A stretch of 64,000 nt of DNA from Candidatus Omnitrophota bacterium (GCA_023247725.1 JAHFFW010000010.1:7734-71733); one strand, 5' to 3'; numbered from the stretch's first letter, positions 2,664 through 33,270 are shown. Numbers and translations: made by a program. The notes: generated by a model not told the origin, from the letters alone.

Positions 2664-2898
2664 ATGGATCAATAAGAAAGGGTGGCTCGATGGATACGTT
2701 GATCCAATTAAACGGAAAGAAGAAACACCACAGGAACCGCCACGCGGCCGAGGGAATGTCACGGTACATGTCCCGTTGAAATGCCCGGGATGTCGTTCCC
2801 GGAAGGTCAGATGTTACGGGGCCGACAGGCCTGTTTTGTATTATAAATGCATGGATTGTATGCTCAAATTTAAGGTCATTGAAAAGGAGGATTATTAA
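2656..2898 (+). CDS. small zinc-ribbon protein (CxxC...CxxC), unknown function
   Basis: 80-aa ORF whose MDKWINKK start overlaps the terminase stop. It carries two Cys pairs (CPGC....C....CMDC). No family recognised. Confidence 0.4.
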   Translation: MDKWINKKGWLDGYVDPIKRKEETPQEPPRGRGNVTVHVPLKCPGCRSRKVRCYGADRPVLYYKCMDCMLKFKVIEKEDY

Positions 2899-3000
2899 AA
2901 GAATTTTCAGTATTTCTGAACCAGTTTATTGACTTTGTATTCTTATTGATGATAGGTTGAGATTGTAAATAAATTTAGGGGGACGCCTCTAAATTTACCA

Positions 3001-3050
3001 AGCGGCAGTTCAGGTGCCTGAACCACTTGACTGCCGCTTTTTCTTTTTTG
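3001..3050 (+). terminator. rho-independent terminator (nested hairpin + U-run)
   Basis: AAGCGGCAGT...ACTGCCGCTT forms a 10-bp stem enclosing the inner GTTCAGG-TGC-CCTGAAC hairpin, followed by TTTTTCTTTTTT. Confidence 0.6.
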
Positions 3051-3077
3051 GGCAGAAAAGCTGAAGGAGGGAGAAAC

Positions 3078-3533
3078 ATGCGACGTGCCATTTTCATGGG
3101 TTTGATTTTGGTGTTTTTTCTTTGCGGTCAAGCCTTCGCGCAGTGCGTTTGGAAGATTCAGTCCGTTGAGCAGGACCCGGACAGAGGATCGATCCTGGTC
3201 GTGACCCAGTATACGCTCAATGGTCAGGTGGCGCAGGTCGGGCATACGCGTTATGACGAGCAGAGCGGAGGTTTGGCAGACATCAAACTATTGATTCAAA
3301 AGGATCTTCAAGATCATTGTGCGGCTTTAATCCGCAGGATCCCGGAGAACGATGATTTTATACAGCTGGAAACCTTAAAGGCGCAGAAAGAATTGACCCA
3401 GCCGTTAATCCAGGCGCTTCAAACGGAAGCTGGGAAATCAGAATCAGTCAAACAGTCAGTCATTATCTGGAAGAGCAAGACAATAACGGTTACCGATGAC
3501 AGCAAGAATTCAATATCTAATATTATTCCTTAG
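3078..3533 (+). CDS. small secreted protein (signal peptide), unknown function
   Basis: RBS GAAGGAGGG precedes ATG 3078. The N-terminus MRRAIFMGLILVFFLCGQAFA-QC is a typical Sec signal peptide. No homology recognised. Confidence 0.5.
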   Translation: MRRAIFMGLILVFFLCGQAFAQCVWKIQSVEQDPDRGSILVVTQYTLNGQVAQVGHTRYDEQSGGLADIKLLIQKDLQDHCAALIRRIPENDDFIQLETLKAQKELTQPLIQALQTEAGKSESVKQSVIIWKSKTITVTDDSKNSISNIIP

Positions 3534-4323
3534 CCTGATTTTTGTTTCTCCAGCTTTCGGGGCAACGGATTGGACAGCAAACGCCAATACCAGGATAGCC
3601 CATAAGTTCGAAGAAACTTCCGGCAATTACCTGGATTCTTCGTCAAACGGGAATAACGGCATTATCGAGGGCTCTGTTACGAGAGGGTCTACCGGCAAAT
3701 TTGGTTCTTTGGCAGTTCAATTTACTGAAATTAATAATGCCGCCGTCCGCATTAATTCCTCCACGTCCTTAAACAATATCGATCCCATAACGGTTTGTGT
3801 TTGGGCTAACAACAATAGCGACGGGCAAAATAGCGTAAATACTTCGGATGCAGGATATGTCATCGAAAAGAATATTCGTTCTTGGATGCTCGCGCTAAAG
3901 CAAACCAATAAATTGAGATGGCTGGTTCATTATTCCGGCGGCAATACGCCTTGGGATACTTCTAATGCGGTTGTCGGCTACGGAACTTTCGAGCATTATG
4001 CGGTGGCTCACCAAAGAAGCGCTGGCGCCTCCCCTAAGCCGGTCATGTATGTCAACGGTGTTTCCGTAAGTTTGACCTCACCAAGTCCGTTTGGAACCAT
4101 TGATAACGATGCGGGGTCGCACATATATATCGGCATTTCAACCACAGGTGGTGTCAATGAGGCAGACGCCATATATGACGAGTTGTTGGTAAACGCGGCC
4201 ATACTGACGGCGACGGACATTAATGAGGTCATGGATTGCGGGCTGGATGGTTTGCAGTGCGCAGGGGCAACCTATTCGGGACGAGGATTAGGCCGCGGTT
4301 TTGGAAGAGGGATTGTGCGATGA
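3496..4323 (+). CDS. secreted LamG/concanavalin A-like lectin-fold protein
   Basis: Signal peptide MTARIQYLILFLSLIFVSPAFGA. The body has a LamG_3-like pattern (..VCVWANNNSDGQ..YVIEKN..W.L.LKQTNKLRW..HYAVAH....PVMYVNGVSV) and a Gly/Arg-rich C-terminus. Confidence 0.5.
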   Translation: MTARIQYLILFLSLIFVSPAFGATDWTANANTRIAHKFEETSGNYLDSSSNGNNGIIEGSVTRGSTGKFGSLAVQFTEINNAAVRINSSTSLNNIDPITVCVWANNNSDGQNSVNTSDAGYVIEKNIRSWMLALKQTNKLRWLVHYSGGNTPWDTSNAVVGYGTFEHYAVAHQRSAGASPKPVMYVNGVSVSLTSPSPFGTIDNDAGSHIYIGISTTGGVNEADAIYDELLVNAAILTATDINEVMDCGLDGLQCAGATYSGRGLGRGFGRGIVR

Positions 4324-6749
4324 GAAAAATATTGATTCTGGTTTTGGCGATTCTTTTATTCCCTTTGCCGGTGTACGCCGTTGAAATGGTCCGACAGAAA
4401 AATCAGGCTACCTACATCATGTTTCCGATTGTGGATGCCGATGGCGATGCGGTTTCCGCAGCTGCGGGACTGGACAGCGAAATCGATACCTGGTCCGATG
4501 GGACGGCTCCCAACGGCTTTGTGGACTGCACGAATGAAGCCACCGAGGTGGGGACTAACGGCGTTTATTATTTGAGCCTTACCGCGGCGGAGATGAACGT
4601 CGACTATATCTACATTCAGGTTAAAACCACAACTACCGGAGCCAAGACACAGCACATTTTAATCCGTACCCTTGTTGGGGATCCGCTGAATCTGGCCACC
4701 ACAGACGACGGCAGTGCGATTAACGTGACGTCCGGAGCCGTCGATACGGTTGCCAGCGTTTCCAACGATGTGGGAATTTCTCAAGCCGGCGCCGATAAGG
4801 TTTGGTCAACCACAACCAGAGCACTGACGGATAAAACCGGTTTCCGGTTATCAGCCTTAGGTGTTGACGATATCTGGGACGAATTGACGTCCGGCCACAC
4901 CACGGCAGGCAGTTACGGGAAGCTATTAACGGATAATATTGACGCTACGATCAGCAGCCGGTCGAGCCATGCGGCCGCGGACGTGTGGTCGGTAGGCACT
5001 CGCACCATCACCGGCGGCACCATTGACATCAATAATGACAAGTCCGGTTACAGTTTAACGCAAGGATTTCCAACAAACTTTTCTTCATTGGCAATTACCG
5101 TTGGCGGGGCCGTAACAGTTGGCACCAACAACGATAAGACCGGGTACACGGTTTCAACGGTTCAGGACAAGACGGGATATTCTTTGACGCAGGCCTTCCC
5201 GAGTAATTTTTCATCGCTGGCAATCACAGCGGGCGGGGCAGTGACAGCCGGGACCGTCAACGATAAGGCAGGATATTCTCTTTCTGCTTCCGGCATTGAT
5301 TCAATTTGGGATGAGTTGACCACCGGCCACACGACCACGGGTAGTTACGGGAAGTTGTTGACCGACAATATCGATGCGGCGATTTCCAGCCGGTCGACTT
5401 ATTCCGGCGGCGCGGTCGCCTCCGTTACCGGAAATGTCGGAGGGACAGTCAACGGATTAACGGCCACGGCCAAGACCGACGTTGAGAATGCGGTCTGGGA
5501 AGCAGCCGCATCAAGTCATAACAATGCCGGAACCATGGGCAATAAACTTAATTCGGCCGGAGATCCTTGGAACACCGCATTGCCCGGTTCATACGGTGCA
5601 GGAACGGCCGGGTATATCTTGGGAACGAATCTAAATGCGACCGTGGGCAGCCGTTCGACTTTAACCGCCGCGAATGTTTGGGATACAGACCTCTCCGGAT
5701 ATTCGACAGCGAATCTGGCCGGTACGCTTCTTAAGGGTGCCGGATCCGCGGGCGATCCCTGGTCAACGACGATCCCCGGAGCGTATGGAGCTGGAACAGC
5801 CGGTTACATTGTTGGCAACAATCTTAACGCGACCGTGGCCTCAAGAAGTTCTCACAGCGCCTCGGATGTTTGGGCTGTGGGGACCCGGACGGTTACTGGC
5901 GGCACGGTTAGCAACGTCACCAATGGTGTCACCGTTTTAACGAACAACGATAAAACCGGATACAGCTTAACGCAGGCCTTTCCCACCAATTTTTCAGCCC
6001 TTTCGATTGATGTCAGCGGCCGCATGGACCTTGGAAAATGGGTTGGCAATGCGCCGAACGCGCTCATTTCAGGGCGCGTAGATTCTAACGCCCAGGTCGT
6101 GGGCGATAAGTCAGGATATAGTTTAATCCAATCGTTTCCGTCCAACTTTTCCAGTCTTGCCATCACTGCCGGTGGAGCGGTCACGGTCGGAACGAATAAC
6201 GACAAGACTGGTTATGCTCTGACTTCTACACAAGAAGATGCGATTGTCGATAAAGTCTGGGATGAATTAAGGAGTGCTCACGTTACAAGCGGATCCTTCG
6301 GCCAAGGCGTGGCATCAATACAAGGCAATGTGACAGGGAGCGTCAACAGCGTTACATCGGGGGTTACGGTTTCAACAAACAACGATAAATCGGGATACCG
6401 TTTAAGCGCATCAGGCGTGGATGACATTTGGGATGAACCTCAGAGCGGTCATACCGGCGCGGGGACCTTCGGGAAATATCTGGATGTTCAATTGTCATCG
6501 ATTACAGCGCCTTCAGCGGCGACCATCGCAAGTGCTGTCTGGGAAGAAACGTCGAACCATGTGACTGACGGGACGATGGGCAAGAAATTAAACGACGCCG
6601 CGTTAGCAGGGGATCCTTGGGCGGCAGCTGGCATTTGTGATGGGTTAACCGCCGGGCAATGTTTGAGCGGTATTAAAGATGCAACGGACGGTGATAAAGA
6701 AGGCTCTGACTATACGGGCATCGAGAAGGCCATCCGTGCGCAGAGGTAA
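4320..6749 (+). CDS. large secreted repeat-rich protein (about 810 aa from ATG 4320)
   Basis: Signal peptide MRKILILVLAILLFPLPVYA, then an ~110-aa N-terminal domain, then many degenerate tandem repeats (NNDKTGYSLTQAFPSNFSSLAITAGGAVTVGT; IWDELTSGHTTAGSYGKLLTDNIDA.ISSRS; GDPWSTTIPGAYGAGTAGYI.G.NLNATV.SRS). Low-complexity G/S/T/A-rich composition. Confidence 0.6.
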   Translation: MRKILILVLAILLFPLPVYAVEMVRQKNQATYIMFPIVDADGDAVSAAAGLDSEIDTWSDGTAPNGFVDCTNEATEVGTNGVYYLSLTAAEMNVDYIYIQVKTTTTGAKTQHILIRTLVGDPLNLATTDDGSAINVTSGAVDTVASVSNDVGISQAGADKVWSTTTRALTDKTGFRLSALGVDDIWDELTSGHTTAGSYGKLLTDNIDATISSRSSHAAADVWSVGTRTITGGTIDINNDKSGYSLTQGFPTNFSSLAITVGGAVTVGTNNDKTGYTVSTVQDKTGYSLTQAFPSNFSSLAITAGGAVTAGTVNDKAGYSLSASGIDSIWDELTTGHTTTGSYGKLLTDNIDAAISSRSTYSGGAVASVTGNVGGTVNGLTATAKTDVENAVWEAAASSHNNAGTMGNKLNSAGDPWNTALPGSYGAGTAGYILGTNLNATVGSRSTLTAANVWDTDLSGYSTANLAGTLLKGAGSAGDPWSTTIPGAYGAGTAGYIVGNNLNATVASRSSHSASDVWAVGTRTVTGGTVSNVTNGVTVLTNNDKTGYSLTQAFPTNFSALSIDVSGRMDLGKWVGNAPNALISGRVDSNAQVVGDKSGYSLIQSFPSNFSSLAITAGGAVTVGTNNDKTGYALTSTQEDAIVDKVWDELRSAHVTSGSFGQGVASIQGNVTGSVNSVTSGVTVSTNNDKSGYRLSASGVDDIWDEPQSGHTGAGTFGKYLDVQLSSITAPSAATIASAVWEETSNHVTDGTMGKKLNDAALAGDPWAAAGICDGLTAGQCLSGIKDATDGDKEGSDYTGIEKAIRAQR
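4780..6520 (+). repeat. intragenic degenerate tandem repeat array (~35-40 codon units, at least three repeat classes)
   Basis: Recurring nucleotide and peptide units inside CDS 4320..6749 (DKTGYSLTQ x6 or more, GSYGKLLTDNID x2, GDPW..A/IPG.YGAGTAGYI x2, VWDEL/IWDEL x5). Confidence 0.6.
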
Positions 6750-6751
6750 GT

Positions 6752-7255
6752 ATGGATTACATCCAGGTCAATAAAGTTCATACGGAAGTGGTTGGTATCC
6801 CCGAATCAAATAGCGGGCATACCGTCACGTTCCAAGTTTATAAGGCCAGCGATAATTCTTTGTTTGCGTCCGGAGCGGCGGTTTATGTCGGCGGATTGAA
6901 TTGGAAAATAAGTTTCATGCCGACTTCTTTGGATGTCTATGCCGTTGATGTTCATAACCTAGACTTGGATGTCACGTATTCCAGGAGTGTTCAAGCAGTT
7001 AGCAGCGTCACTTTATCCCAGCCGGTAGGTGATGAGGAAACGACACCTACAATAAATGAGTTGATTGAATTGATCGATAAAGCCATTGCGGCGAGATTAC
7101 GTGGCGGGGCGGCGCAGTCCTATTCCATCGGCGGACGCAATTTGCAGTATATGACGTTGTCCGAACTTAGAAGCTTACGTGCCGAATTAAATAAACAATT
7201 GGCCGCCCAGAAAGGCGGCGGACGAAATTATGCAAAGTTTGTCGACCCAGACTAA
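6752..7255 (+). CDS. gpW-like head-tail joining protein with an N-terminal extra domain
   Basis: C-terminal SYSIGGRNLQYMTLSELRSLRAELNKQLAAQKG resembles lambda gpW (...[24 protein letters not shown]...). Positioned between terminase and portal as in lambda. The N-terminal ~100 aa are unrelated. Confidence 0.5.
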   Translation: MDYIQVNKVHTEVVGIPESNSGHTVTFQVYKASDNSLFASGAAVYVGGLNWKISFMPTSLDVYAVDVHNLDLDVTYSRSVQAVSSVTLSQPVGDEETTPTINELIELIDKAIAARLRGGAAQSYSIGGRNLQYMTLSELRSLRAELNKQLAAQKGGGRNYAKFVDPD

Positions 7256-8852
7256 AAAAACATTTGCGGACAGGGTGGATGATTTCATCGGAGTCTTTTC
7301 ACCCTATGCGGCGGCCAAACGCAAATATTTTCGTTTTTTGACAAGTTCGCTTTTGAGCGCTTACCGGGGAGCCGATATCGGCCGCTTGCGAGGATCATGG
7401 ATCCCGGGCGGCGGGTCAGCTGATTCCGATTTACATCCTGATCTTTCAAAACTGCGTGAACGCAGCCGGGACCTGATTCGCAATGACGGCATTGCCTCAG
7501 GGGCAATCGATACGGTTATCACCAACATCATTGGATCGGGCATTCAGATGCAGAGCCGCATCGATAAAGATACGTTGGCCGTTGGCGAGGAAATTGCCGA
7601 CAAACTTCAAAATCAGATCGAACACATCTGGGACCGATGGGTGCCCCATGCGGACGCCGGAAACAGGTTGAGCTTTTATGGGCTGGAGGAATTATCGGAG
7701 CGGCAAAGGTTCATTAACGGCGAATCGATCATTGTTCCGCTACGCATCGCCAACTCAAAAAAGAAAAGACCATATTCGCTGGCTTTACAGACGATCGAAT
7801 CCGACAGGCTGGATACACCGAGCGATTTAAGATCCAACAAAAACATTCGGGCCGGTGTGGAGGTCGGTGAGTACGGGGAACCTGTCGCCTATTACATTCG
7901 CAAGAACCACCCGGGAGATTTTCTCTATGGCCGCCGGTACGGCAATTCCAGCGAGAATTTCATCAAGTATCCGGCCTTAAACGATCTGGGAGATCCCAAC
8001 GTTTTTCATTTGTACCATGTGAAACGATCCGGGCAGACACGGGGGGAACCGTTTTTCTCACCCGTATTGAATATGTTTAAAGATCGCGTGGATTACATGG
8101 AAGCGGAAATCGTGGCCGCGCGCGTGGCGGCGTGCTTTGCGATCTTCATCAAGAAAACAAATTCTTACGAAGTCAGCCTGGCGAGGTCGAAATCCGAAAG
8201 CAACAAGCGCGTCGAAGAATTAAGCCCGGCGATGATCGAGTATTTGAACGAGAACGAAGAAATCCAGCCGTTTAATCCGAATCGTCCTGGCGGGACCTTC
8301 GGGATATTCATGGAACGGGTCCTTCGCGACATATCCGCCGGGTTAAACATCCCTTACGAGATTCTGGCCAAAGATTTTTCAAGGTCGAATTATTCCAATA
8401 CCCGGGCGGCCTTACTGGAAGCGCGTAGGTTTTTCATGATGCAACAGCGTTTTGTTTCAGAGAATCTTTGTCAGCATATTTTGGTCATGCTTTTGGAGGA
8501 GGCCTATTTAAAAGGTGAACTGTCGATTCTAGACTTTTATCAGAACCGGGATGCTTACGTGCGGACCCGCTGGATTGCCCCGGGGTGGCAGTGGGTGGAT
8601 CCGGAAAATGAGGTCAAGGCTTCTGTGGATGCCGTGGACAACAACCTCTCGACTCTGGCTGAGGAGGCAGCCGCCCAGGGGCAGGACTGGGAAGAAAATT
8701 TGGAACAACGAGCCAGAGAACTCAAAAAGATTAAGGATTTGGAACAGAAATACGGCGTTGATATGACCGTTGATAAAGAAAAGAAACCGGAGAGAGTGAC
8801 GGATGGCAAAAAGCCGGAACCTCAAGGGCAAAGCGCCCCGCAGGAAAACTAA
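7230..8852 (+). CDS. phage portal protein, lambda gpB family
   Basis: LRGSWIPGGGSADSDLHPDLSKLRERSRDLIRNDGIASGAIDTVITNIIGSGI mirrors the conserved lambda-type portal N-terminal region (RLRGDW..SADSDI..LRQRSRQLVRNN). Size is 540 aa. Position follows W. Confidence 0.85.
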   Translation: MQSLSTQTKKTFADRVDDFIGVFSPYAAAKRKYFRFLTSSLLSAYRGADIGRLRGSWIPGGGSADSDLHPDLSKLRERSRDLIRNDGIASGAIDTVITNIIGSGIQMQSRIDKDTLAVGEEIADKLQNQIEHIWDRWVPHADAGNRLSFYGLEELSERQRFINGESIIVPLRIANSKKKRPYSLALQTIESDRLDTPSDLRSNKNIRAGVEVGEYGEPVAYYIRKNHPGDFLYGRRYGNSSENFIKYPALNDLGDPNVFHLYHVKRSGQTRGEPFFSPVLNMFKDRVDYMEAEIVAARVAACFAIFIKKTNSYEVSLARSKSESNKRVEELSPAMIEYLNENEEIQPFNPNRPGGTFGIFMERVLRDISAGLNIPYEILAKDFSRSNYSNTRAALLEARRFFMMQQRFVSENLCQHILVMLLEEAYLKGELSILDFYQNRDAYVRTRWIAPGWQWVDPENEVKASVDAVDNNLSTLAEEAAAQGQDWEENLEQRARELKKIKDLEQKYGVDMTVDKEKKPERVTDGKKPEPQGQSAPQEN

Positions 8853-10132: not shown

Positions 10133-10855
10133 ATGTCACAGGAAAATTTGGGATCAAAGTCTTTCGTTGCCGGTGAAGATTTGGAAGCGTATCGTCGCGT
10201 CAAGCTTTCCAGCGGGAACGTCGTCTACGCCGATGCCGGGGAAGAGTTTATCGGCGTCACCGGGCATAAGGCCGTAAGCGGTGAGCAGGTCACGGTCAAT
10301 TTAAGGTCGGCATCGCGCACTTACAAGATGGTTGCCTCCGGAGTCATAACCGCTGGGAATACGATTTATGGCGCCAATGACGGCAAAGTTTCAGCTTCGG
10401 CATCGGGGGTTGCCCAAGGTGTGGCTGTTGAAGCGGCTACAGCAGACGGTGATGTTATCGAGTGTTTCCAGAATAATGGCGTGGCCGGTGCTATCGATGG
10501 GGCATCTACGGCTATAGGTGATCCTGCTGTCAACGGAGCTGTTCCCGTTGTTTTTGCCAAACAGGGTATCACCGATGCGACCACATCTTTAACGATTGTG
10601 ACAGCGCCGTACAAATTCAGGATCGTTGATTGGTGGATTATTGCCCGGGATACCACAGCGGCCAACGTCAAATTAATCAATGTCAGCACCGATGCAACAG
10701 CCGTTAAAGCCAAGGGAACGACAAACGATGCCATCGTCAGAGGCGGGGACATCATAAATGCTCAAAAAGACGTGTCAGCCGGGAATGCCTTGAAAGTCAA
10801 TGCCAGTGCGGCCGCGGCTTTCGACATCTTTGTTGTGGCGATCAAAGTCAGCTAA
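10133..10855 (+). CDS. head decoration / capsid cement protein (DUF2190-like N-terminal domain)
   Basis: N-terminus SFVAGEDLEAYRRVKLSSGNVVYADAGEEFIGVT...GEQVTV matches the decoration-protein pattern. It sits immediately upstream of the major capsid gene, as lambda D does to E. Confidence 0.5.
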   Translation: MSQENLGSKSFVAGEDLEAYRRVKLSSGNVVYADAGEEFIGVTGHKAVSGEQVTVNLRSASRTYKMVASGVITAGNTIYGANDGKVSASASGVAQGVAVEAATADGDVIECFQNNGVAGAIDGASTAIGDPAVNGAVPVVFAKQGITDATTSLTIVTAPYKFRIVDWWIIARDTTAANVKLINVSTDATAVKAKGTTNDAIVRGGDIINAQKDVSAGNALKVNASAAAAFDIFVVAIKVS

Positions 10856-21866: not shown

Positions 21867-22210
21867 TGGAAGGGTATTGTCAAAGTTGCGGACAGATAGT
21901 CGACATGGAGAACGTCCAGACCGTGCGGCTTCCTAATTTATCTTTTATTCAAAAAGGGATTTGCAGCCGGAAAGATTGTTTGGGCGTTATCTTTAAACTT
22001 GTAGAGGATCATGAAATTATTATTAATGCGGCCGGACATAAATTTCCTAAGGAAGTTTATGTTGGTCCTGAAACGCCGAGAAAATTGTTCGATAAGGACA
22101 ACGGACAGACGATTTTTAAAGGGAATGAAATTGTAAGAACAAAACTTAAGAACGATCAGATCAAAACAGTAAAAGAAATCAAGGAGAAATTAAATGGCCG
22201 ACGAGATTAG
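21866..22210 (+). CDS. hypothetical Cys-rich small protein (possible tail fibre assembly factor)
   Basis: 114 aa with CQSCGQ...C....C. Lies between the J-like gene and the tail fibre gene. Confidence 0.3.
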   Translation: MEGYCQSCGQIVDMENVQTVRLPNLSFIQKGICSRKDCLGVIFKLVEDHEIIINAAGHKFPKEVYVGPETPRKLFDKDNGQTIFKGNEIVRTKLKNDQIKTVKEIKEKLNGRRD

Positions 22211-23981
22211 ATATCAATATGACGACAATTTCCCCGGGGGCTCTTTTTCGTTGGCTAATTTTAGGGCAACGTTAAGAGCCTTGCATGAACAGGATCTCAT
22301 GCCGTTACGGCCCCGGGCTAAGCGGATATTGGATGGGATGGAATACAGCACCGATGCCTCAGCGCAGGCTGAATATTCGGGAGTTGGGGTCACCATCACA
22401 AAAGAAGGAACGATCAAACAAGAGGGGAGTTTTTCTCTAAAGGCGGTAACCGATGCGACCGCCAATCGGTCTTTCAGCCGGGCCTTTTCAATAAACTTAA
22501 GCGCATTTCAAAAGATTACGCTTTGGGAAAGGTCGTCCGGCGTGTCGCAAACAATTCGTTTTTATGTCCAGGACGGAAGCGGAAACCAGAGCTACTGGAA
22601 TATCACGACCAATGGAACAGCCAATACTTGGCAACAAGACACTTTAACCTTAAGTACGCCTTCCGGGAATAATGGCGCAAACGCGAATTTATCCAATATT
22701 ACGGTTTACGGGTTTCAAAACTTAAGCGCTTCGACGACGTATTACTTCGATACGATCAAGGCGATTGTGGACATGACGGTGGCTATCTTAGGCACTGATT
22801 TAGGCGCCTATTATCGCCATGTGTATTTAACCAATCAGCCCTTACAAGTCAATGCCCAGGCGGCTTCAACGATCACAGCGCCAGCAGGCAATCCAAGAAT
22901 CGACATTTTGACAATCGATTCAGCCGGAGCTTTATCTTGGATCATGGGGACAGAAGCATCATCGCCATCGGCGCCGTGGTCAAGCATGCCCGCAAACAAA
23001 ATTCCTATTTGTTTGGTTTATCAAAAGACGACAATGACCAAGGTTTTGGATTTTGAAGATAAAGATACCGACACCAATCAAGGTTACATTCTGGCCGATG
23101 TCCGGCCGTTTATGAAAAATGGGTTTACCTTTTTTAAAGGAGCGGACGTCGCCAGCGCCTCAACCGTTAATTTAGGTAACGACGGGAATTTTTTCAATAT
23201 TACGGGAACGACAGCAATCACTTCAATAACAGCTAAACCAGCGGGAACGGTCGTGTGGCTGAGGTTTACCGGAATTCTAACAGTAACAAATGGAAGCAAC
23301 CTCAAGTTGAACGGCAATTTCGTAACCGCGGCCGACTCCATGCTTCAGTTGGTCAGCGACGGAACGAATTGGTATGAGGTGAGCCGCCAACCCACAACCA
23401 CAACATTTTTGGGATTAAGCGATACGCCGAGCAGTTATTCGGGGCAGGCGAATAAACTCGTCCGGGTTAATGCGGGCGAGACAGGTTTGGAATTTATTAT
23501 TGGCATACCCGTGGGGCTTGGGCCGCTTCCCTGGCCAACGGATACACCTCCCTCTGGATGGTTGTTGTGCGACGGAAGCGCGGTATCCCGGACAACCTAT
23601 TCCGCTCTTTTTGCAGTGATTGGCACAACCTTTGGACCCGGAGATGGAAGCACCACGTTTAATTTGCCGGATATGCGCGGCCGCGTTCCGCTGGGGCAGG
23701 ATGACATGGGTGGGGTTTCCGCAAACAGAGTCACGAATGCTCAGGCTGATATTATCGGTGGTTCGGCGGGCGCGGAAAATCATCAATTGACCATTGCGGA
23801 GATGCCATCGCACAATCATGGGGTTCAAATCAATGATGCAACAAGTGCCGGTCCTAACAGGAAACCAGAGACGGCCGGGATTCAAAATACATACGCTTGG
23901 CCTTCCGACTACACTGGAGGTAATCAAGTCCACAATAATATGCAGCCTTATTTGACTCTGAACTACATCATCAAATATTAA
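22194..23981 (+). CDS. tail fibre protein with C-terminal phage tail-collar domain
   Basis: C-terminus PSGWLLCDGSAVSRTTYSALFAVIGTTFGPGDGSTTFNLPDMRGRVPLG is the Collar (PF07484-type) signature P.GW..CDG..ls...Y..Lf..iG..yG.gdg.ttFnLPDlRGr. Confidence 0.75.
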   Translation: MADEIRYQYDDNFPGGSFSLANFRATLRALHEQDLMPLRPRAKRILDGMEYSTDASAQAEYSGVGVTITKEGTIKQEGSFSLKAVTDATANRSFSRAFSINLSAFQKITLWERSSGVSQTIRFYVQDGSGNQSYWNITTNGTANTWQQDTLTLSTPSGNNGANANLSNITVYGFQNLSASTTYYFDTIKAIVDMTVAILGTDLGAYYRHVYLTNQPLQVNAQAASTITAPAGNPRIDILTIDSAGALSWIMGTEASSPSAPWSSMPANKIPICLVYQKTTMTKVLDFEDKDTDTNQGYILADVRPFMKNGFTFFKGADVASASTVNLGNDGNFFNITGTTAITSITAKPAGTVVWLRFTGILTVTNGSNLKLNGNFVTAADSMLQLVSDGTNWYEVSRQPTTTTFLGLSDTPSSYSGQANKLVRVNAGETGLEFIIGIPVGLGPLPWPTDTPPSGWLLCDGSAVSRTTYSALFAVIGTTFGPGDGSTTFNLPDMRGRVPLGQDDMGGVSANRVTNAQADIIGGSAGAENHQLTIAEMPSHNHGVQINDATSAGPNRKPETAGIQNTYAWPSDYTGGNQVHNNMQPYLTLNYIIKY

Positions 23982-23993: not shown

Positions 23994-24236
23994 ATGTCAG
24001 ATAACGAAATCCACTTAACACCGAGGGAACTGGAAGAAATCAAAGACGATGTTGCTTTTAAAACAAAAACAACATTGACGTTAAAGCATGTTTTAAAAAA
24101 GCTCGATGATCTAAACGGGGTCCGGGATGAGGTCACCTCATTAAAGACACACCGGAACATCCATTGGTTTTTGATTTCGGTCATTATCACCGGACTATTC
24201 GGGATCACGTTTTGGTTGATGCAAGGGAATCATTAA
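23994..24236 (+). CDS. XhlA-like lysis-associated membrane protein
   Basis: 80 aa with N-terminal coiled coil (LEEIKDDV...LKKLDDLNGVRDEVTSLK) and a single C-terminal TM (WFLISVIITGLFGITFWL). Same architecture as the XhlA haemolysin family. Confidence 0.45.
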   Translation: MSDNEIHLTPRELEEIKDDVAFKTKTTLTLKHVLKKLDDLNGVRDEVTSLKTHRNIHWFLISVIITGLFGITFWLMQGNH

Positions 24237-24265
24237 ATAACAAAACAAAAGAAAGGGGTGCAGAA

Positions 24266-24484
24266 ATGAATCCAATCGATTATCTCAATAATTTTGCACA
24301 GCAACATGCGTGGATTGGTCTTGCAATTGCAATTGTCATCGCAGTGCATACCGGTCTCAAAGCTTTGCGCGATGCTATCGATAGCACGCCGCAGACCGAT
24401 GACAATTGGTTTGAGCGGATCGTGACTATTTTGGGCAAAATCACCGGTTATCTGGCCGGGTTTCGCGCCAAGAAAAACCCTTAG
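24266..24484 (+). CDS. putative holin (single-TM small membrane protein)
   Basis: 72 aa with RBS AAAGGGG. TM helix AWIGLAIAIVIAVHTGL followed by a charged C-terminus. Lies adjacent to the XhlA-like gene. Confidence 0.4.
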   Translation: MNPIDYLNNFAQQHAWIGLAIAIVIAVHTGLKALRDAIDSTPQTDDNWFERIVTILGKITGYLAGFRAKKNP

Positions 24485-25747: not shown

Positions 25748-25945
25748 ATGGTGAAAAAGGAAGAAGTTTTAACCGCAGAAGAAGTTGCGGAATATCTAAG
25801 GATTCATCCGTACACGCTGAGACGATTAGCCCGGGCAGGCAAACTCCCGGGCTTTAAAATTGGTGGGCAGTGGAGGTTTCGGAAAGATGAAATCGACGCA
25901 TGGTCAAAAGGATCTAAGAATAAGAAGAAAAAAGGGAAATCATAA
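25748..25945 (+). CDS. excisionase-family / MerR-type HTH DNA-binding protein
   Basis: LTAEEVAEYLRIHPYTLRRLARAGKLPGFKIGGQWRFRKDEIDAW is the 'excisionase family DNA binding domain' HTH pattern. 65 aa. The stop overlaps the next ATG. Confidence 0.6.
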   Translation: MVKKEEVLTAEEVAEYLRIHPYTLRRLARAGKLPGFKIGGQWRFRKDEIDAWSKGSKNKKKKGKS

Positions 25946-28900
25946 TGCCGAGAATCTTTGACAATATCGATCTTGATTTATTAACGGCCTTAAAAGAAAC
26001 TTTAAACGTTTCTAATCGTGCTGATTTCTGCGTTGGCTATTTTAATTTGAGGGGATGGAGGCAGATAGATTCTTATATTGAACGTTGGGCCGGTGGTGAG
26101 GGAAAGTGCTGCCGGTTGTTGGTCGGGATGTCAAAGTTACCCCAGGATGAATTGCGAGAAGCGCTAAGCCTTGTGAAGAACGAGGAAGGAATTGATAACC
26201 AAACGGCTTTACGCCTTAAGAAGAAACTAGCCGAGGAATTCCGAAACCAGTTAGCTTGGGGTATACCTACAAATGAAGATGAAGTTGGTCTGCGGCGTTT
26301 GGCATCACAAATTAAGGCTCAAAAGGTTGTGGTCAAGCTATTCCTGCGACACCCTCTCCATGCAAAACTCTATCTGCTTTTTCGTCCTGACCCCATTAAC
26401 CCTACTGTGAGTTATCTTGGCAGTAGCAATCTAACTTTCGCTGGTCTATCTAAACAAGGCGAGTTAAACATTGACGTGTTAGACCACGACGCTTGCCAGA
26501 AATTGTCCAGATGGTTTGAAGATAGATGGGATGATCACCGGTGCATTGATATTTCAAAAGAACTGGCAGATATAATTGATGAGAGTTGGGCGCGCGAGGA
26601 GCAGCCCATTCCTTATTACATATATCTTAAAATGGCTTATCACTTATCGCAGGAGGCTCGAGTTGGTCTGTCTGAATTTAAAATTCCAAAGGAGTTTGGT
26701 CAAAAGCTTTTTGAATTTCAAACAGCGGCGGTTAAGATAGCGGCTCACCATATTAATAAACGTGGTGGTGTGCTAATAGGTGATGTTGTGGGCTTGGGAA
26801 AAACACTAATGGCCACGGCCGTCGCGCGCATTTTCGAAGACGATCACGGACTCGAAACCTTAGTCATCTGCCCCAAGAACTTGGTCCCTATGTGGGAAGA
26901 CTACCGAGAGCAATATCGTTTACATGCCAAAGTGCTTTCCATCAATCGTGCGGCGCGAGAGCTTCCAAGTTTACGCCGATACCGCTTAGTTATTATCGAT
27001 GAGAGTCACAATCTTCGTAATCGTGAGGGGAAACGCTATCGAGCAATTCAAGAATATTTGCAGGAAAATGAAAGTAAGGTAATACTGCTTTCGGCTACTC
27101 CCTATAATAAAACCTATTTGGATTTATCTAATCAATTACGGCTTCTCGTTTCTGCTGATAGTGATATCGGGATTCGCCCCGAACGAAAATTGCGTGAAAT
27201 GGGTGAAACCGAATTTATCCGCCAGCATCAGTGTTCAGTTCGTTCTCTCGCCGCATTTGAAAAGAGTGAATATGCCGATGACTGGCGTGAGCTGATGCGC
27301 CTCTATCTTGTGCGCAGAACACGCACGTTCATCCAGGATAATTACGCTGAAACTGATCCAACGAATGGAAGAAAGTTTTTAACATTTGAAGACGGCACGC
27401 GATCCTATTTCCCGACCCGCATACCAAAGACTGTACCGTTTCATATTGACGATCATAATCCATCAGACCAGTATGCTCAGCTTTATGCGCCTGACGTTGT
27501 CGATATAATCAACCATCTCAATTTACCCAGATATGGTCTAGGCAATTATGTAGCCGCCACCCCCCATAAGCCGCCAACGGCAACTGAGCAAAAGATTTTA
27601 CAAGATCTTTCTCGTGCTGGTCGAAGACTCATGGGTTTCTCGCGAACAAACCTATTTAAACGTCTGGAGAGCAGCGGGCATGCTTTTCTCCAATCGGCTG
27701 AACGGCATATCTTACGGAATTTTATCTTTCTTCACGCTATCGAGAATGACCAGCCGATACCCATTGGAACGCAAGACGCCGAGATTCTCGATACACGATT
27801 CTCTGATGAAGATAAAACAGTTGAGTTATTTAACGATAATGATGACGATGGAGAAGTGGCTGAGGAAACGACATCACTAAGGAGTGAAAAAGATTTCAAA
27901 AATCGAGCTTCAGAAGTTTATTCAGAGTATTTCAAATTACACAAACATCGTTTTAAATGGCTGCCGCCGGAATTTTTCGTTAAATCACTGGCTAATGATT
28001 TACGAGCTGACATAGATACACTTATGAGAATTTTGAACAAATGCAAGCAGTGGGACCCTGCCAAGGATGCGAAACTCGATGCGCTTTACGACCTGTTAAT
28101 AAAAAAATACCCGAATGACAAAGTCCTGATTTTTACCCAATTCGCCGACACGGTACGTTATCTTGAGAAACAACTAACTGATCGTAAGGTTGCAAAACTG
28201 GCTGGCGTTACCGGTGACTCTTCTAATCCCACTGCCTTAGCCTGGCGCTTTAGCCCAATTAGCAATAACAAACAAGAGTATATTAAACCAGCTGATGAAC
28301 TTCGTGTATTAATTGCGACGGATATCCTGAGCGAGGGGCAAAACCTCCAGGATTGTTCCGTTGTGGTCAATTTCGACCTGCCCTGGGCTATCATTCGTTT
28401 AATTCAGCGGGTTGGACGCGTAGACCGTATCGGACAGAAAGCCGAGAAAATATTATGTTATTCATTTCTGCCAGCCGAGGGGGTTGAGCAAATTATTAAT
28501 TTGCGCAACCGTGTGCGACAGAGACTCAGTGAAAATGCCGAAGTGGTAGGGACAGATGAGGCATTTTTCGAAGACGACCGCGATGACAGAAGAGTGCTCG
28601 ATCTATATCACGAAAAATCCGGAATCTTGGATGGAGATGCTGACAGCGAAGTGGATCTTGCATCCTATGCCTACCAGATTTGGAAAAATGCTATTACAGA
28701 GAATCCGGAGTTGCAAAAAGTTATTCCTGAACTGCCGGATGTCGTTTACTCTACAAAACCAATTAAGCCAACTGAAAAAGAACCAGAGGGAGTATTGGTT
28801 TATCTTCGCACGGCAGAAGGAAATGACGCGCTCACTTGGGTCAGTAAAGACGGAAAAAGTGTTACCGAATCACAACTTACAATTCTTAAAGCCGCTGAGT

Positions 28901-29322
28901 GCGCGTCCAATACCCCTACAGTCCAGCGCATGGAAGAACATCATCAGTTAGTTCAGAAAGGCGTTGAGCTGATTGTCGCAGAAGAAAAGTCTGTCGGTGG
29001 CCAGTTAGGACGTCCATCGGGTGCGCGTTTCCGGACATACGAGCGTTTGAAACGATATGTAGAGGAAGTAAAAGGCACTCTTTTCGAATCCCAAGAACTA
29101 CTCAAAGCTATTGAGGAAATATACCGCTATCCCCTGCGGTCGACTGCCCTAGACACCCTCAACCGTCAATTAAGAAGCGGTATATCTGATCAGACATTGG
29201 CGGAATTGGTCGTGGCCCTCCGTGATGAAGGCCGATTGTGTATTATTAATGAGGAAGAGCAGGTTCACGAACCGCAGATTATCTGTTCTCTTGGGCTCGT
29301 TTCTAAGCGGGAGGCCAAGTAA
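25945..29322 (+). CDS. fused PLD-family (HKD) nuclease + SNF2-family helicase
   Basis: N-terminal HAKLYLL.....LGSSNLT (HxK...GSxN HKD motif). Then SNF2 motifs GDVVGLGKTLMA (I), VIIDESHNLRN (II, DExH), LLSATPYNK (III), QRVGRVDRIGQ (VI). 1125 aa. Confidence 0.85.
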   Translation: MPRIFDNIDLDLLTALKETLNVSNRADFCVGYFNLRGWRQIDSYIERWAGGEGKCCRLLVGMSKLPQDELREALSLVKNEEGIDNQTALRLKKKLAEEFRNQLAWGIPTNEDEVGLRRLASQIKAQKVVVKLFLRHPLHAKLYLLFRPDPINPTVSYLGSSNLTFAGLSKQGELNIDVLDHDACQKLSRWFEDRWDDHRCIDISKELADIIDESWAREEQPIPYYIYLKMAYHLSQEARVGLSEFKIPKEFGQKLFEFQTAAVKIAAHHINKRGGVLIGDVVGLGKTLMATAVARIFEDDHGLETLVICPKNLVPMWEDYREQYRLHAKVLSINRAARELPSLRRYRLVIIDESHNLRNREGKRYRAIQEYLQENESKVILLSATPYNKTYLDLSNQLRLLVSADSDIGIRPERKLREMGETEFIRQHQCSVRSLAAFEKSEYADDWRELMRLYLVRRTRTFIQDNYAETDPTNGRKFLTFEDGTRSYFPTRIPKTVPFHIDDHNPSDQYAQLYAPDVVDIINHLNLPRYGLGNYVAATPHKPPTATEQKILQDLSRAGRRLMGFSRTNLFKRLESSGHAFLQSAERHILRNFIFLHAIENDQPIPIGTQDAEILDTRFSDEDKTVELFNDNDDDGEVAEETTSLRSEKDFKNRASEVYSEYFKLHKHRFKWLPPEFFVKSLANDLRADIDTLMRILNKCKQWDPAKDAKLDALYDLLIKKYPNDKVLIFTQFADTVRYLEKQLTDRKVAKLAGVTGDSSNPTALAWRFSPISNNKQEYIKPADELRVLIATDILSEGQNLQDCSVVVNFDLPWAIIRLIQRVGRVDRIGQKAEKILCYSFLPAEGVEQIINLRNRVRQRLSENAEVVGTDEAFFEDDRDDRRVLDLYHEKSGILDGDADSEVDLASYAYQIWKNAITENPELQKVIPELPDVVYSTKPIKPTEKEPEGVLVYLRTAEGNDALTWVSKDGKSVTESQLTILKAAECASNTPTVQRMEEHHQLVQKGVELIVAEEKSVGGQLGRPSGARFRTYERLKRYVEEVKGTLFESQELLKAIEEIYRYPLRSTALDTLNRQLRSGISDQTLAELVVALRDEGRLCIINEEEQVHEPQIICSLGLVSKREAK

Positions 29323-29325
29323 ACT

Positions 29326-32300
29326 ATGCCCGTTGCCGTCGTCAATTGCAGGAATTACCTGAGGAATTTTGATCTAAATTCATTGTTTATCGAACAACTG
29401 GGCTGGGACATTCATGCCCAAACGTTGGAAGTCGCTGTTGACGGGAAAAATTTTATTTTAAATGCTGTAGCTCAAAAACGAGGCATGGCCGCATTTGTCC
29501 TTAATGGCCGCATTCCTGATTATTCCACGCGACGCAAAATTGAGCGTCAGGTAGCTAAGTCCGCCCATGAACACCTGATCATTTTTACTGATCCTGATCA
29601 GACAGTCCAAACATGGCAGTGGGTAAAGCGCGAGGCCGGGAAGCCAATCGCCTGCAGAGAGCATATTTATCACCGCAACCAATCCGGAGACGGGCTGATT
29701 CAGAAACTTCAAGCGATTGCCATTAGCATTGAAGAGGAAGAAAGCTTAACGCTTCCTCAAGTCGTTAACCGTGCGCGGACAGCCTTTGATGTCGAACGTG
29801 TCACTAAACGCTTCTATGATTGCTTCAAAACCGAACATGATGCTTTCTTCCGATTTATCAAAGGGATTCCTGATGATGAACTGCACCGCTGGTATGCTTC
29901 CGTTATGCTCAACCGGCTGATGTTCATCTATTTCATTCAAAAAAAAGGCTTCCTCGATGGTGATACTAATTACCTTCAGACGAAATTGATGCAAGCTAAG
30001 CAGCGGGGCAAAGATTGTTTCTATCGCGAACAGCTCTGCCCGCTATTCTTTGAGGGTTTCGCCAAAAAGCCCTCCCAGCGATCAGCCTCAAGTAACAAAC
30101 TTTTGGGCAAAGTGCCTTATCTAAACGGCGGGATCTTTCAACGTCATCAAATTGAAGAGCTTCATGGAAAACAAATTCAGATTTCCGATGCCGCCTTCGA
30201 GAAATTATTCAGTTTCTTTGAACAATACCACTGGCATTTGGACGAACGCCCGCTTCGCTCCGATAATGAAATCAACCCGGATGTTCTTGGTTACATTTTC
30301 GAAAAATACATCAACCAGAAGCAGATGGGGGCGTATTACACCAAAGAAGATATCACGGGCTACATCAGCAAATACACGATCAGTCCGTTCCTCTTCGAGG
30401 CGGCCCGCGGCAAATGCAAAGTGGCTTTTGAAAACCCTAAGGGACCTACTATCTGGGATTTGCTTAAAACCGATCCGGATCGTTATATCTATAATGCTGT
30501 CAAAAAAGGGATGAATCTGCCCCTGCCTCCGGAAATCGCGGCCGGGGTTAAGGACGTTGCCAAGCGCACCGAATGGAACAAACAAGCGTCCGAAGAATAT
30601 GCCCTTCCACCCGAAATTTGGCGCGAAGTCATTGAGCGGCGCAAACGCTATGAAGAAGTTAAAAGGAAACTAACCACAGGAGAAATCAAGGATATCAACG
30701 ATCTCATCACCTATAACCTCGACATTCGCCAGTTTGCCCAGGATGTCATAGAAAATTGTGAAGGCCCGGAATTGCTCCGTGCCTTTTGGCATGGTATTGA
30801 ACCAATTACCGTGCTCGACCCGACCTGCGGCAGCGGGGCGTTTTTGTTTGCCGCCGTGAACATTCTTGAGCCGCTTTACGAAGCCTGCCTTGACCGGATG
30901 GAGATGTTTGTTGAAGAGATGGAGTGTTCTGCTCAAAAACACCGCCCTGAGAAATTTTCCGATTTTCGCAAAATCCTAGAGCGTGTTGCTCAGCATCCCA
31001 ATCGCAGATATTTTATTTTCAAATCTATCATCGTCAATAACCTTTACGGTGTGGATATTATGGAAGAGGCTGTCGAAATCTGCAAGTTGCGCCTGTTTCT
31101 CAAGCTTGTTGCGCAGATTGACCGTGAAGAGCAAATCGAACCGTTGCCCGACATCGACTTCAATATCCGGGCCGGTAATACACTGATTGGCTATGCCACT
31201 TACGAGGAGATGAAAAGCGCCATTACAAGCCGGCTTGATTTTGATAATGCCTTGGATCGTATTGAAAAAAGGGCTCAGGATGTGGATCGACTGTTTAGTT
31301 TATTTCGTCAACAACAGACTGAATTAGGTGGCGAGGTCGCAGCTGAAGATAAACAGGTTTTACGAGATCGCCTTAAATCTCTTGAAGATGAACTCAATCA
31401 GTACCTCGCCAACGAATACGGCGTGGATACCAAGAAGCACGGTCCTTACGAACAATGGCTGAAAACGCATCATCCGTTTCATTGGTTTATCGAATTTTAC
31501 GGCATCATGAAGAAAGGCGGGTTCAATGTCATAATCGGTAACCCGCCATACCTTGAATTACGCGAAGTACGGTATACTCCCCAAAATTTTAAATGTGGGA
31601 ATAGTGGGGCAATCCATGCGATGTGTATCGAACGCAGTGTGCAGTTACTCCATCGACAGGGATGCATGAGCATGATTGTTCCATTGTCCTTGGTCTCAAC
31701 ACAACGAATGCAGATCGTTCAGGAAGTTCTAGAAACTAAACGAAACGCTTGGTATTCAAATTACTCGTGGCGCCCGGGTAAGCTTTTCGATACAGTTAAC
31801 CGCGCCCTGACTATCTTCGCTAGCACGCCATCAGAAAAAGGTAGAACATTCTCGACTAACTATCAGAAATGGACATCTGATAGTCGTGATTTACTTATGT
31901 TAAAACTCAACTTCATTGAAATCTTTCGACCGCGACCGGCTTGTTGGATTCCCAAACTTGGTAATGAGATAGAACCTTCAATTTTAAAGAAATGTTTACA
32001 AGTAAAAGTCCCATTAGGCAGTTTTATCCGAAATAATAATTACAGGATTTACTATCGCACCACTGGAGGCCTCTATTGGAAAGTATTTACAGATTTTCCA
32101 CCCGCATTCAAAGTTAATGGAAAGGTCGGTCACTCCAGTCGAGAAACTAAGTTTTCGTTAACCGACGCAAGATTTGTTTTTCCTGTCATAGCTGTTTTAA
32201 GCAGCGATCTGTTTTGGTGGTGGTACACTATCACAACTAATTGTCGTGATCTTAACCCTTATGATATACAGAATTTTCCTATTCCTGAATCTGCGATAAC

Positions 32301-32562
32301 TGACGCAGCGCTGTCAAGCTTAGGAGAAAAATACCTGAAAGATATTAAGCAAAATAGCATCATGCTGGTTCGTGTTCAAAGACAAACTGGCAGGACTCAA
32401 ACTCAGTCGTTTAAAATCCAAAAGACTAAGGCGATCATCGATGAAATTGACCAAGTGATAGCTAATCATTATAGGCTTAATCAAGAAGAGATAGACTTTA
32501 TCACAAATTATGACATCAAGTACCGCTTAGGTTTCGATGATGAAGATAACGATGAAGAATAG
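29326..32562 (+). CDS. MmeI/PglX-family (type IIG / BREX-like) N6-adenine DNA methyltransferase
   Basis: KVPYLNGGIFQ...LGYIFEKYINQKQMGAYYTKEDITGYI parallels MmeI (FPYINGKLFE...IFGSLFQSI...LGAHYTSEANI). Motif I VLDPTCGSGAFLFAAV and motif IV VIIGNPPYLE (NPPY). The N-terminal ~100 aa contain a possible degenerate PD-(D/E)xK (IIFTD...QWVK). ~1078 aa with a long C-terminal TRD-like region. Confidence 0.85.
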   Translation: MPVAVVNCRNYLRNFDLNSLFIEQLGWDIHAQTLEVAVDGKNFILNAVAQKRGMAAFVLNGRIPDYSTRRKIERQVAKSAHEHLIIFTDPDQTVQTWQWVKREAGKPIACREHIYHRNQSGDGLIQKLQAIAISIEEEESLTLPQVVNRARTAFDVERVTKRFYDCFKTEHDAFFRFIKGIPDDELHRWYASVMLNRLMFIYFIQKKGFLDGDTNYLQTKLMQAKQRGKDCFYREQLCPLFFEGFAKKPSQRSASSNKLLGKVPYLNGGIFQRHQIEELHGKQIQISDAAFEKLFSFFEQYHWHLDERPLRSDNEINPDVLGYIFEKYINQKQMGAYYTKEDITGYISKYTISPFLFEAARGKCKVAFENPKGPTIWDLLKTDPDRYIYNAVKKGMNLPLPPEIAAGVKDVAKRTEWNKQASEEYALPPEIWREVIERRKRYEEVKRKLTTGEIKDINDLITYNLDIRQFAQDVIENCEGPELLRAFWHGIEPITVLDPTCGSGAFLFAAVNILEPLYEACLDRMEMFVEEMECSAQKHRPEKFSDFRKILERVAQHPNRRYFIFKSIIVNNLYGVDIMEEAVEICKLRLFLKLVAQIDREEQIEPLPDIDFNIRAGNTLIGYATYEEMKSAITSRLDFDNALDRIEKRAQDVDRLFSLFRQQQTELGGEVAAEDKQVLRDRLKSLEDELNQYLANEYGVDTKKHGPYEQWLKTHHPFHWFIEFYGIMKKGGFNVIIGNPPYLELREVRYTPQNFKCGNSGAIHAMCIERSVQLLHRQGCMSMIVPLSLVSTQRMQIVQEVLETKRNAWYSNYSWRPGKLFDTVNRALTIFASTPSEKGRTFSTNYQKWTSDSRDLLMLKLNFIEIFRPRPACWIPKLGNEIEPSILKKCLQVKVPLGSFIRNNNYRIYYRTTGGLYWKVFTDFPPAFKVNGKVGHSSRETKFSLTDARFVFPVIAVLSSDLFWWWYTITTNCRDLNPYDIQNFPIPESAITDAALSSLGEKYLKDIKQNSIMLVRVQRQTGRTQTQSFKIQKTKAIIDEIDQVIANHYRLNQEEIDFITNYDIKYRLGFDDEDNDEE

Positions 32563-33151: not shown

Positions 33152-33235
33152 ATAGTGACAGCGACCATTAGCCGAGATTGAAATGGTCGAGAATTTCGAT
33201 TAATAAAAAACTAAGAGATTTTCAATATTTATGAC

Positions 33236-33270
33236 GGCAAGGCCTAAGATTGGTTTTGCCATTTTTTATT
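33236..33270 (+). terminator. weak terminator-like hairpin after the MTase/DprA-like operon
   Basis: GGCAA-(15 nt)-TTGCC followed by ATTTTTTATTTATT. A second hairpin CGACCATT-N12-AATGGTCG lies at 33162-33189. Confidence 0.3.

Follow-up and report, generated by a model that had tools for sequence, protein, structure and literature searches.

Why would a lambda-like phage carry three genes with predicted secretion signals between its terminase and the genes of its head-tail junction? The question is raised by a 64,000-nucleotide (nt) stretch of DNA from a Candidatus Omnitrophota bacterium (GCA_023247725.1, JAHFFW010000010.1:7734-71733), referred to below as the window, whose left 25 kilobases are a lambda-like siphophage. 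The three genes, named P1, P2 and P3, lie on the + strand at 3078-6749; the classical gene order of lambda-like phages is A-W-B (terminase, gpW, portal). In the initial annotation the genes were described as a terminator-delimited moron, i.e. lysogenic-conversion or surface-modification cargo whose exported products take no part in virion assembly. The best reading of the data presented here is that the late (head-tail) operon of a lambda-like temperate Omnitrophota siphophage begins with these three genes. This placement is based on the leader shared with insert-less relatives, on the lack of a gap or a terminator between P3 and gpW and on the overlap of the genes. As to function, we tentatively favor, at somewhat less than even confidence, a late-expressed module of a Sec-exported lectin (P2) and fibre (P3), with P1 as a partner, which would dock on the phage neck and act there as an accessory neck fibre or adhesin.

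The origin of the insertion can be seen from relatives gathered via the portal and via the sequence of the leader hairpin (the hairpin pattern gave 86 metagenome matches, mostly chance ones without the stem). Nine loci, here and below given by L numbers, carry no cargo (L012, L033, L034, L038, L077, L088, L115, L120 and L121). In all of them the order is terminase, zinc (Zn)-ribbon protein, leader, gpW of 68-83 amino acids (aa) and portal, so the basal arrangement is A, (Zn-ribbon), leader, W, B. Relative to these phages the cassette is thus extra DNA, separating genes that are otherwise neighbours, which bears out the view of the initial annotation by the very comparison it had proposed. In the four of these loci with upstream DNA present (L012, L033, L034 and L038) a palindrome at the position of the dyad, hairpins 1 and 2 and the U-run are found; the last three also have the TTCAG dyad and the TTGACT -35 hexamer. 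Since insert-less relatives carry the leader directly 5' of a short gpW, the terminator belongs to an ancestral late-operon leader and is not a boundary of the cassette. On this comparison the leader is an ancestral regulatory element 5' of the structural genes. The cassette is therefore not "terminator-delimited": a terminator is found on its 5' side only, and at the other end the stop codon of P3 (TAA, at 6749) is separated from the ATG of the gpW-like gene (6752) by 2 nt.

The gpA-type terminase and Zn-ribbon open reading frame (ORF), followed by an AT-rich stretch and a strong hairpin with a U-run, were confirmed as initially described. The spacer of 2899-3077 is AT-rich in its first part (2899-2969; G+C content 0.43 over 2801-3200) and contains, in this order, a dyad, a -35-like hexamer, a weak -10, hairpin 1, hairpin 2 and the U-run. 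The dyad TTCAG-N5-CTGAA (2906-2920, + strand), a candidate activator site, is located 8 nt 5' of the hexamer. It is kept in about a dozen relatives, including the insert-less L033, L034 and L038, while L006, L012 and L013 have other palindromes at its position; these three are also the relatives with the most divergent Zn-ribbon protein. The promoter-like site (2929-2957, + strand) is formed by TTGACT (2929-2934), a spacer of 16-17 nt and GATAGG/ATAGGT, a poor -10 with 3/6 matches. The weak -10 together with the upstream dyad suggests dependence on an activator, and the product of the Zn-ribbon ORF (CPGC...CMDC; 2656-2898, + strand) is a candidate late regulator. This ORF matches phrog_1474 (function not known, E = 9e-4) and has no match in a Pfam profile search, the Ogr_Delta family included. 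It is found directly 5' of the leader in most relatives examined, one more ORF being present between them in L128.

Hairpin 1 (2970-2997, + strand) has a loop, GGGGACGCY, that is invariant within its class, on a stem that co-varies. Hairpin 2 with the U-run (3000-3049, + strand) consists of a stem (3000-3039) followed by TTTTTCTTTTTT. The 121-nt fold with both hairpins has an energy of -50.1 kcal/mol (z = -6.5); hairpin 2 alone (stem of 16-17 base pairs, -23.9 kcal/mol) is found once within the window and shows the G+C-rich stem running into a U-run that is typical of an intrinsic terminator. A consensus scan reported neither the promoter-like site nor the terminator, because it admits neither bulged stems nor a -10 that lacks the final T; the leader elements were assigned by folding and by comparison among relatives. 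A search of Rfam at a permissive threshold gave nothing credible (best SR6 antitoxin, E = 0.13, 23 bits against a cut-off of 55). Across 16 distinct sequences the long hairpin is 96.6% paired with 5 pairs changed on both sides, and an alternative inner hairpin that uses the same 5' segment is 97.9% paired with 5/6 pairs changed on both sides; in slid controls the pairing drops to 29-54%. The apex GGUGCC and a CACU element of the RNA are invariant. Judging from these substitutions, the two mutually exclusive helices are both maintained by compensatory changes, which fits the earlier idea that the hairpin may act as an attenuator and lends it support. The late-leader RNA was seen in the window (2970-3049) and in L003, L004, L006, L010, L012, L013, L022-L024, L027, L031-L035, L038 and L039. 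The same hairpin is also present in the G+C-rich contigs L035, L036 and L075, where it precedes a 562-aa gene and where no similarity to proteins of the window phage was detected.

The genes behind the leader are tightly packed. P1 (3078-3533, + strand, 151 aa) overlaps P2 (3496-4323, + strand, 275 aa), which starts 38 nt within P1, and P2 in turn overlaps P3 (4320-6749, + strand, 809 aa). A ribosome-binding site was initially attributed to each gene; AGGAGG is found for P1 and GAGG for P3, and none for P2. The purine-rich codons of the P2 tail also supply the GAGG 5' of P3. P3 starts at the ATG at 4320 (MRK...) in the public gene call and in all homologues. Its frame is open for 28 codons 5' of this ATG (4236-4319), across the DNA for the Gly/Arg tail of P2, and this explains why an 837-aa ORF had been called from an upstream TTG. 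The repeats ascribed to that ORF do exist, as interspersed peptide motifs and not as tandem DNA repeats. A fusion of P3 to gpW by -1 frameshifting was considered and rejected: reading by hand (about 6720-6752) shows that the gpW frame stays open for no more than 9 codons 5' of its start, and the sole slippery-like site, GAAAAG (E-K), is not conserved, being replaced by E-N and E-R in L004 and L027.

Export of the three proteins is very probable on the evidence of their N-termini. A simple n/h/c rule run on 30 prophage genes flagged exactly three of them, P1, P2 and P3, in accordance with the initial description of three + strand genes with Sec-type leaders; the signal-peptide call is a heuristic one combined with conservation. 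By this heuristic each protein has a basic n-region, an h-region within 10-20 residues and small residues at -3/-1. The leaders are MRR-AIFMGLILVFFLCGQAFA/QC for P1, MTAR-IQYLILFLSLIFVSPAFG/A for P2 and MRK-ILILVLAILLFPLPVYA/VE for P3 (the slash marks predicted cleavage), with h-regions of 13-14 uncharged residues (mean Kyte-Doolittle hydropathy 2.5-3.0) preceded by K/R and followed by small-x-small motifs. Among homologues the position of the leader is conserved and its sequence is not. The N-domain of P3, of the VRQKN type, occurs in 69 of its top 120 relatives, of which about 65 have a hydrophobic leader of 20-30 residues with AxA-like motifs at its end; in the other 4, which have no leader, the protein begins precisely with MELVRQKN. 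Another P3 N-domain, unrelated to this one (MWLTIKKG...), follows a leader plus the ancestral Met in this lineage, and its other relatives are leaderless. As the leader precedes the ancestral Met, it was added 5' of complete fibre proteins and has been kept.

The P1 family (67 representatives at 50% identity) carries a leader in at least 59 of the 67. All 37 aligned members have the leader followed by Cys at about +2 of the predicted mature end, directly preceded by Q, D or E in 33 of them, usually as AxA/QC, and two cysteines are near-invariant. P1 itself is predicted to start with Gln after cleavage (AFA/QC). The LamG proteins have two Cys pairs, and in 10/10 sequences both members of a pair occur or are missing together, in differing combinations, as would be expected of disulfides. 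The part of the earlier claim that concerns export is thus strengthened by leader conservation and paired cysteines. A Tat (twin-arginine translocation) signal suggested by the MRR of P1 was rejected since RR is not conserved in the family, as was a lipoprotein signal, the residue at -1 before the h-region Cys being L, I or T and the AxA site following it. In L127 the P3-like protein P0101 (457-2136) has a canonical type IV prepilin leader, MTHKKG/FTLMELLV, and not one of Sec type I.

The mature parts of the proteins point to a virion fibre and a lectin. P1 consists of the leader, the AFA/QC site and a body with the two near-invariant cysteines; its model is confident (predicted local distance difference test, pLDDT, 93), and no convincing structural neighbour was found when the model was compared with known structures. 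P2 comprises a leader, a LamG/ConA-like body and a conserved C-terminal Gly/Arg (RG) tail, YSGRGLGRGFGRGIVR. The LamG assignment made initially holds, since PF13385 is matched at 1e-11 (45.6 bits against a gathering cut-off of 27.6), and LamG is also found in the P2 slot of L024 and L031. P3 is composed of the leader (1-20), a beta-sandwich N-domain (about 21-120), interspersed fibre-type repeats, a Cys loop and a basic C-tail ending in ...YTGIEKAIRAQR. Its composition is 47% T/G/A/S, and its motifs include (N)DK(S/T)GY, present 6 times as NDK[S/T/A]GY and 9 times when the shorter form DK(S/T)G[Y/F] is counted, FPxNFSxL (4 times) and DPW...NATVxSRS (3 times); Tandem Repeats Finder detected no tandem repeat array in its DNA. 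The P3 family has 2577 significant relatives, the distant members being leaderless phage proteins. In L028 the capsid genes and the gpFII/gpZ neck genes flank a leaderless P3 homologue, upstream of which a 65-aa ORF ends in a P2-type tail (YSGRGIGRGISRGIMR). L030 has, within a module of contractile-tail type, a LamG protein followed by a P3-like protein, both without leaders. It is on account of this fibre family, and of the neck-linked gpW domain described next, that the other part of the earlier claim, the exclusion of virion assembly, did not hold.

The gpW-like gene (6752-7255) overlaps the start of the portal gene and encodes an extra N-terminal domain (6752-7036, + strand) in front of the head-tail joining domain (7037-7255, + strand; phrog_118 1e-8, phrog_5774 2.5e-7). 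Its match to NF047331 (27.6 bits) is under the cut-off of 33, and the assignment to the gpW type is made from the profile match together with the place directly 5' of a lambda-family portal (7230-8852, + strand; PF05136, E = 2e-100). Both genes are thus present 3' of the cassette as was initially stated. The extra domain (about 95-120 aa) is found in 13/13 loci with a P3-like gene upstream, and gpW is short in 13/13 loci without one. L004 has an additional free-standing copy of the domain; a homologue search with the gpW N-domain retrieved only gpW-like proteins of 166-167 aa and one 75-aa fragment. In L127, which has a different phage backbone, the gpW-type extra domain is fused to a phrog_442 head-tail adaptor directly 3' of a P3-like gene, with 51% identity to the L032 domain (E = 1e-34) and 35% to the one in the window (E = 2e-9). 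Of all single observations, this fusion of one domain to two unrelated neck proteins argues most strongly for a link between the cassette and the neck.

The C-tails of P3 and the types of neck domain also go together. Tails of the form ...IEKxIRAQR are paired with neck-domain type A, those ending in ...IKKSRGR, ...IKKARGR or ...IRRTRGR with type B (L031, L032 and L127), and ...(Y/N)VGP with type C (L016 and L128). At the other end of P3, the RG tail is encoded upstream of every canonical VRQKN-type P3 (11 cassettes, L028 and L129), and it is missing where the P3 N-domain differs (L006 and L024), L127 and L128 being variants; the leaderless pair of L028 keeps this pairing as well. Homology of the gpW N-domain to the N-domain of P3, or to a 121-aa protein 3' of the leaderless P3 of L028, was rejected on the hhalign result (probability 0.2% in each case).

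As judged by comparison, the cassette is accessory and variable and yet conserved at the terminase-gpW slot across the lineage. Leader-bearing cassettes are present in the window and in L003, L004, L006, L010, L016, L022, L023, L024, L027, L031, L032, L047, L083, L098, L113 and L128. The body of P2 is LamG in eight loci and unrelated in the others, P1 is present, replaced or absent, and P3 is 177 to 1031 aa long. The genomic context was examined for seven leader-bearing P3 homologues, and all of them belong to this phage lineage and occupy this slot; outside it, a leader-bearing P3 precedes lysis genes in L129, and a P3-like protein with a prepilin leader precedes the neck adaptor in L127. Other cargo is found in the slot as well. 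L013 (5210-6108), L015 (2998-3255) and L039 (3' of the hairpin) carry small proteins with two transmembrane (TM) segments, a TM plus coiled-coil protein and a lipobox lipoprotein, i.e. a holin/spanin-like set; none of these features (multi-TM, TM plus coiled coil, lipobox) is present in P1-P3. In L020 (1-2330) the slot contains a diversity-generating retroelement with a reverse transcriptase, a C-type-lectin-like variable-region end and a template-like copy, and gpW is short. The cassette of L024 includes a peptidase C39-like gene (3529-3927; PF03412, E = 3e-6) flanked by a 512-aa LamG protein and a 177-aa mini-P3, the latter reduced to a leader, a small N-domain and the conserved C-tail.

The mechanism that we propose would be as follows. 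An ancestral late promoter with an upstream dyad would give rise to a structured leader ending in an intrinsic terminator. Between this leader and gpW a variable accessory module would have been inserted in this lineage, its 3' end including the ~95-aa domain that is now fused to the N-terminus of gpW. In the module P1 would be a small partner, P2 a LamG-type lectin and P3 a long protein of phage-fibre ancestry. Since all three are predicted to carry cleavable Sec leaders, they would be made late, processed, exported via Sec and oxidatively folded outside the cytoplasm. The P2 tail might then dock on the N-domain of P3 and the C-tail of P3 on the neck-mounted domain. The lectin-tipped fibre would be added to completed particles only at lysis, once the inner membrane is breached, or in the lysate, and would act on the particle as an accessory neck fibre or adhesin. 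That capture of Sec-exported, disulfide-bonded subunits by a neck docking domain after lysis is the last step of morphogenesis is possible but rather doubtful; such a step would apply to accessory virion fibres in this Omnitrophota tailed-phage group, one relative using a type IV prepilin leader.

Several points weigh against a neck fibre. Virions are assembled in the cytoplasm, and a periplasmic fibre would meet gpW only after disruption of the membrane, for which we know of no precedent among tailed phages. The phage already has a gpJ-like tip protein and a tail-collar fibre. The fold match of the P3 N-domain is no better than to generic immunoglobulin-like domains (the BppU N-terminal type was tested). 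The co-varying segments are adjacent in the DNA, so that linkage alone could yield the pattern, and the counts of 13/13 overstate the number of independent events because the loci share ancestry. In L129 a leader-bearing P3 is not followed by any neck protein. Finally, virion association, export and expression of P1-P3 are themselves proposals from sequence. It is less likely than a neck fibre, but still to be reckoned with, that P1-P3 are late, exported effectors that act on the host envelope or on debris and never enter the virion. Possible roles are receptor masking against readsorption (as by Llp of T5), exclusion or help with release, and the gpW domain would then be an unrelated hitchhiking decoration. 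The conserved export signals, the holin/spanin-type membrane proteins and lipoproteins in the slot of L013, L015 and L039, the failure to recognise an endolysin or spanin in the prophage and the prepilin-type leader of L127, which implies display on a membrane or pilus, are all in line with this explanation, as are the signal-peptidase-I substrates of Porphyromonas gingivalis phages, proposed to be outer-membrane modifiers (PMC10367356). It leaves unexplained, however, why a domain always directly following a P3-like gene is fused to two unrelated neck proteins and why leaderless homologues occur within structural modules, and P1-P3 have no match in PADLOC, NCBIfam or the lysis families.

The moron of the initial annotation, with a promoter of its own that is active in the lysogen when the neighbouring late genes are silent, is quite improbable. 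Omnitrophota are reported to be surface-attaching nanobacteria, and an adhesin could matter to such a host; the cassette is accessory DNA, its content differs among relatives, a promoter-like site is present upstream, and the predicted exported products resemble lectins or adhesins. What did not stand is its autonomy, as the cassette lacks the promoter and downstream terminator of its own by which a moron is defined. The promoter and the terminator are ancestral and common to insert-less relatives, the terminator is situated between the promoter and the genes, and there is no terminator between the cassette and the gpW and portal genes, so that transcripts would continue into the head genes. 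The weak -10 and the dyad suggest dependence on an activator, and the fibre ancestry and neck link of the cassette speak against a moron as well. Least probable by far is that the hydrophobic N-termini are not export signals at all, P2 and P3 being fibres assembled in the cytoplasm whose leaders are removed by a protease or serve as tethers. Signal-peptide predictors do give false positives on phage capsid proteins (PMC10367356), and the neck link would be simplest with cytoplasmic assembly. Against this stand the length and hydropathy of the h-regions with K/R before and small-x-small after, the conserved AxA/QC of P1, the paired co-variation of cysteines, the canonical G/FTLxE prepilin leader in a relative and the leaderless homologues, which need no such segment.

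Several known systems resemble the cassette in part. Lambdoid morons (lom and bor of lambda, gp15 of HK97) are likewise extra genes among late genes with envelope-targeted products, but each brings a promoter and a terminator of its own and is transcribed in the repressed prophage; the cassette takes its regulatory DNA from the late leader of the phage itself, lacks a terminator at its 3' end and consists of three coupled genes, the last of which is wired to gpW. The fibritin whiskers of T4, the collar appendages of phi29 and the neck passage structure of TP901-1/Tuc2009 are accessory fibres of the head-tail junction, as is proposed here, dispensable for the core particle and involved in host interaction. 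They have no signal peptides, in contrast to P2 and P3, and are assembled in the cytoplasm; no sequence homology to them was found. PblA and PblB of phage SM1 of Streptococcus mitis are phage fibre-type proteins that become adhesins outside the virion after phage-mediated lysis. Unlike P2 and P3, they lack signal peptides, reach the surface only via lysis and belong to a Gram-positive host. The leader resembles in its layout the pR'-6S-tR' region of lambda, where a late promoter is followed by a short leader and a terminator subject to antitermination by Q, and also the arrangement of Ogr of phage P2 and Delta of P4, where a small Zn-finger activator acts together with a dyad upstream of a weak late promoter. 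In contrast to these, the Zn-ribbon ORF has no Ogr_Delta match, the leader belongs to no Rfam family, and it is placed after the terminase genes and not in front of the lysis genes. P. gingivalis phages carry signal-peptidase-I substrates with a function not known, for which modification of the outer membrane was proposed (PMC10367356). They differ from P1-P3 in not being linked to fibre families or neck proteins, and are likened to them here by description.

The remainder of the prophage has the gene order of a lambda-like siphophage. The small terminase (143-796, phrog_57) and the gpA terminase (735-2663; GpA_ATPase 2e-72, GpA_nuclease 3e-63) precede the Zn-ribbon ORF. The portal is followed by a protease/scaffold, a 240-aa protein and the major capsid protein, and these by head closure, tail terminator, tube, tape measure and gpM-, gpL-, gpK- and gpJ-like genes, the tail-collar fibre (22194-23981) and two small membrane proteins (23994-24484), which are similar to the small membrane proteins in the slot of L013, L015 and L039. 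The 240-aa protein (10133-10855, between the protease and capsid genes) has no family match; its counterpart has only 117-119 aa in L015, L016 and L033, which makes the C-terminal half an optional addition. The whole prophage contains no recognised endolysin or spanin. To the left, a serine recombinase and a short early region are seen in the relatives and in a larger record of this phage; several relatives are labelled as Candidatus Omnitrophota metagenome-assembled genomes. Neither the portal (34% identity at most) nor P3 has a close relative in the curated phage collection, which also contains no cultured, annotated or proteomically studied relative. The prophage is adjoined by a defence island (25945-38249) with an HKD+Snf2 helicase, a type IIG restriction-methylase (PADLOC E = 0), a PsyrA-like protein, E2, E1 and JAB proteins of a ubiquitin-like system and PDC-M48B/LmuA-like proteins; an excisionase-like helix-turn-helix gene (25748-25945) lies 5' of it.

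Assembly of tailed-phage particles is regarded as taking place wholly in the cytoplasm, and envelope-targeted phage proteins are usually lysis proteins or lysogenic-conversion cargo. Late-operon genes for secreted proteins that look wired to the neck are unusual for a tailed phage, and no description of leader-bearing fibre-family proteins wired to neck proteins was found in the literature. The terminase-gpW slot emerges as a hot spot where relatives hold fibres, lectins, a diversity-generating retroelement or lysis genes, and it is preceded by a conserved late-leader RNA with two alternative helices that is defined here and absent from Rfam. In this slot a fibre-family protein and its lectin partner combine conserved export signals with genetic ties to neck proteins, on two phage backbones. 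If P2 and P3 reach the virion, this would mean a new late assembly step and a route to disulfide bonds in virion fibres. If they never do, a virion fibre would have been turned into a secreted envelope factor of cell-attached nanobacteria.

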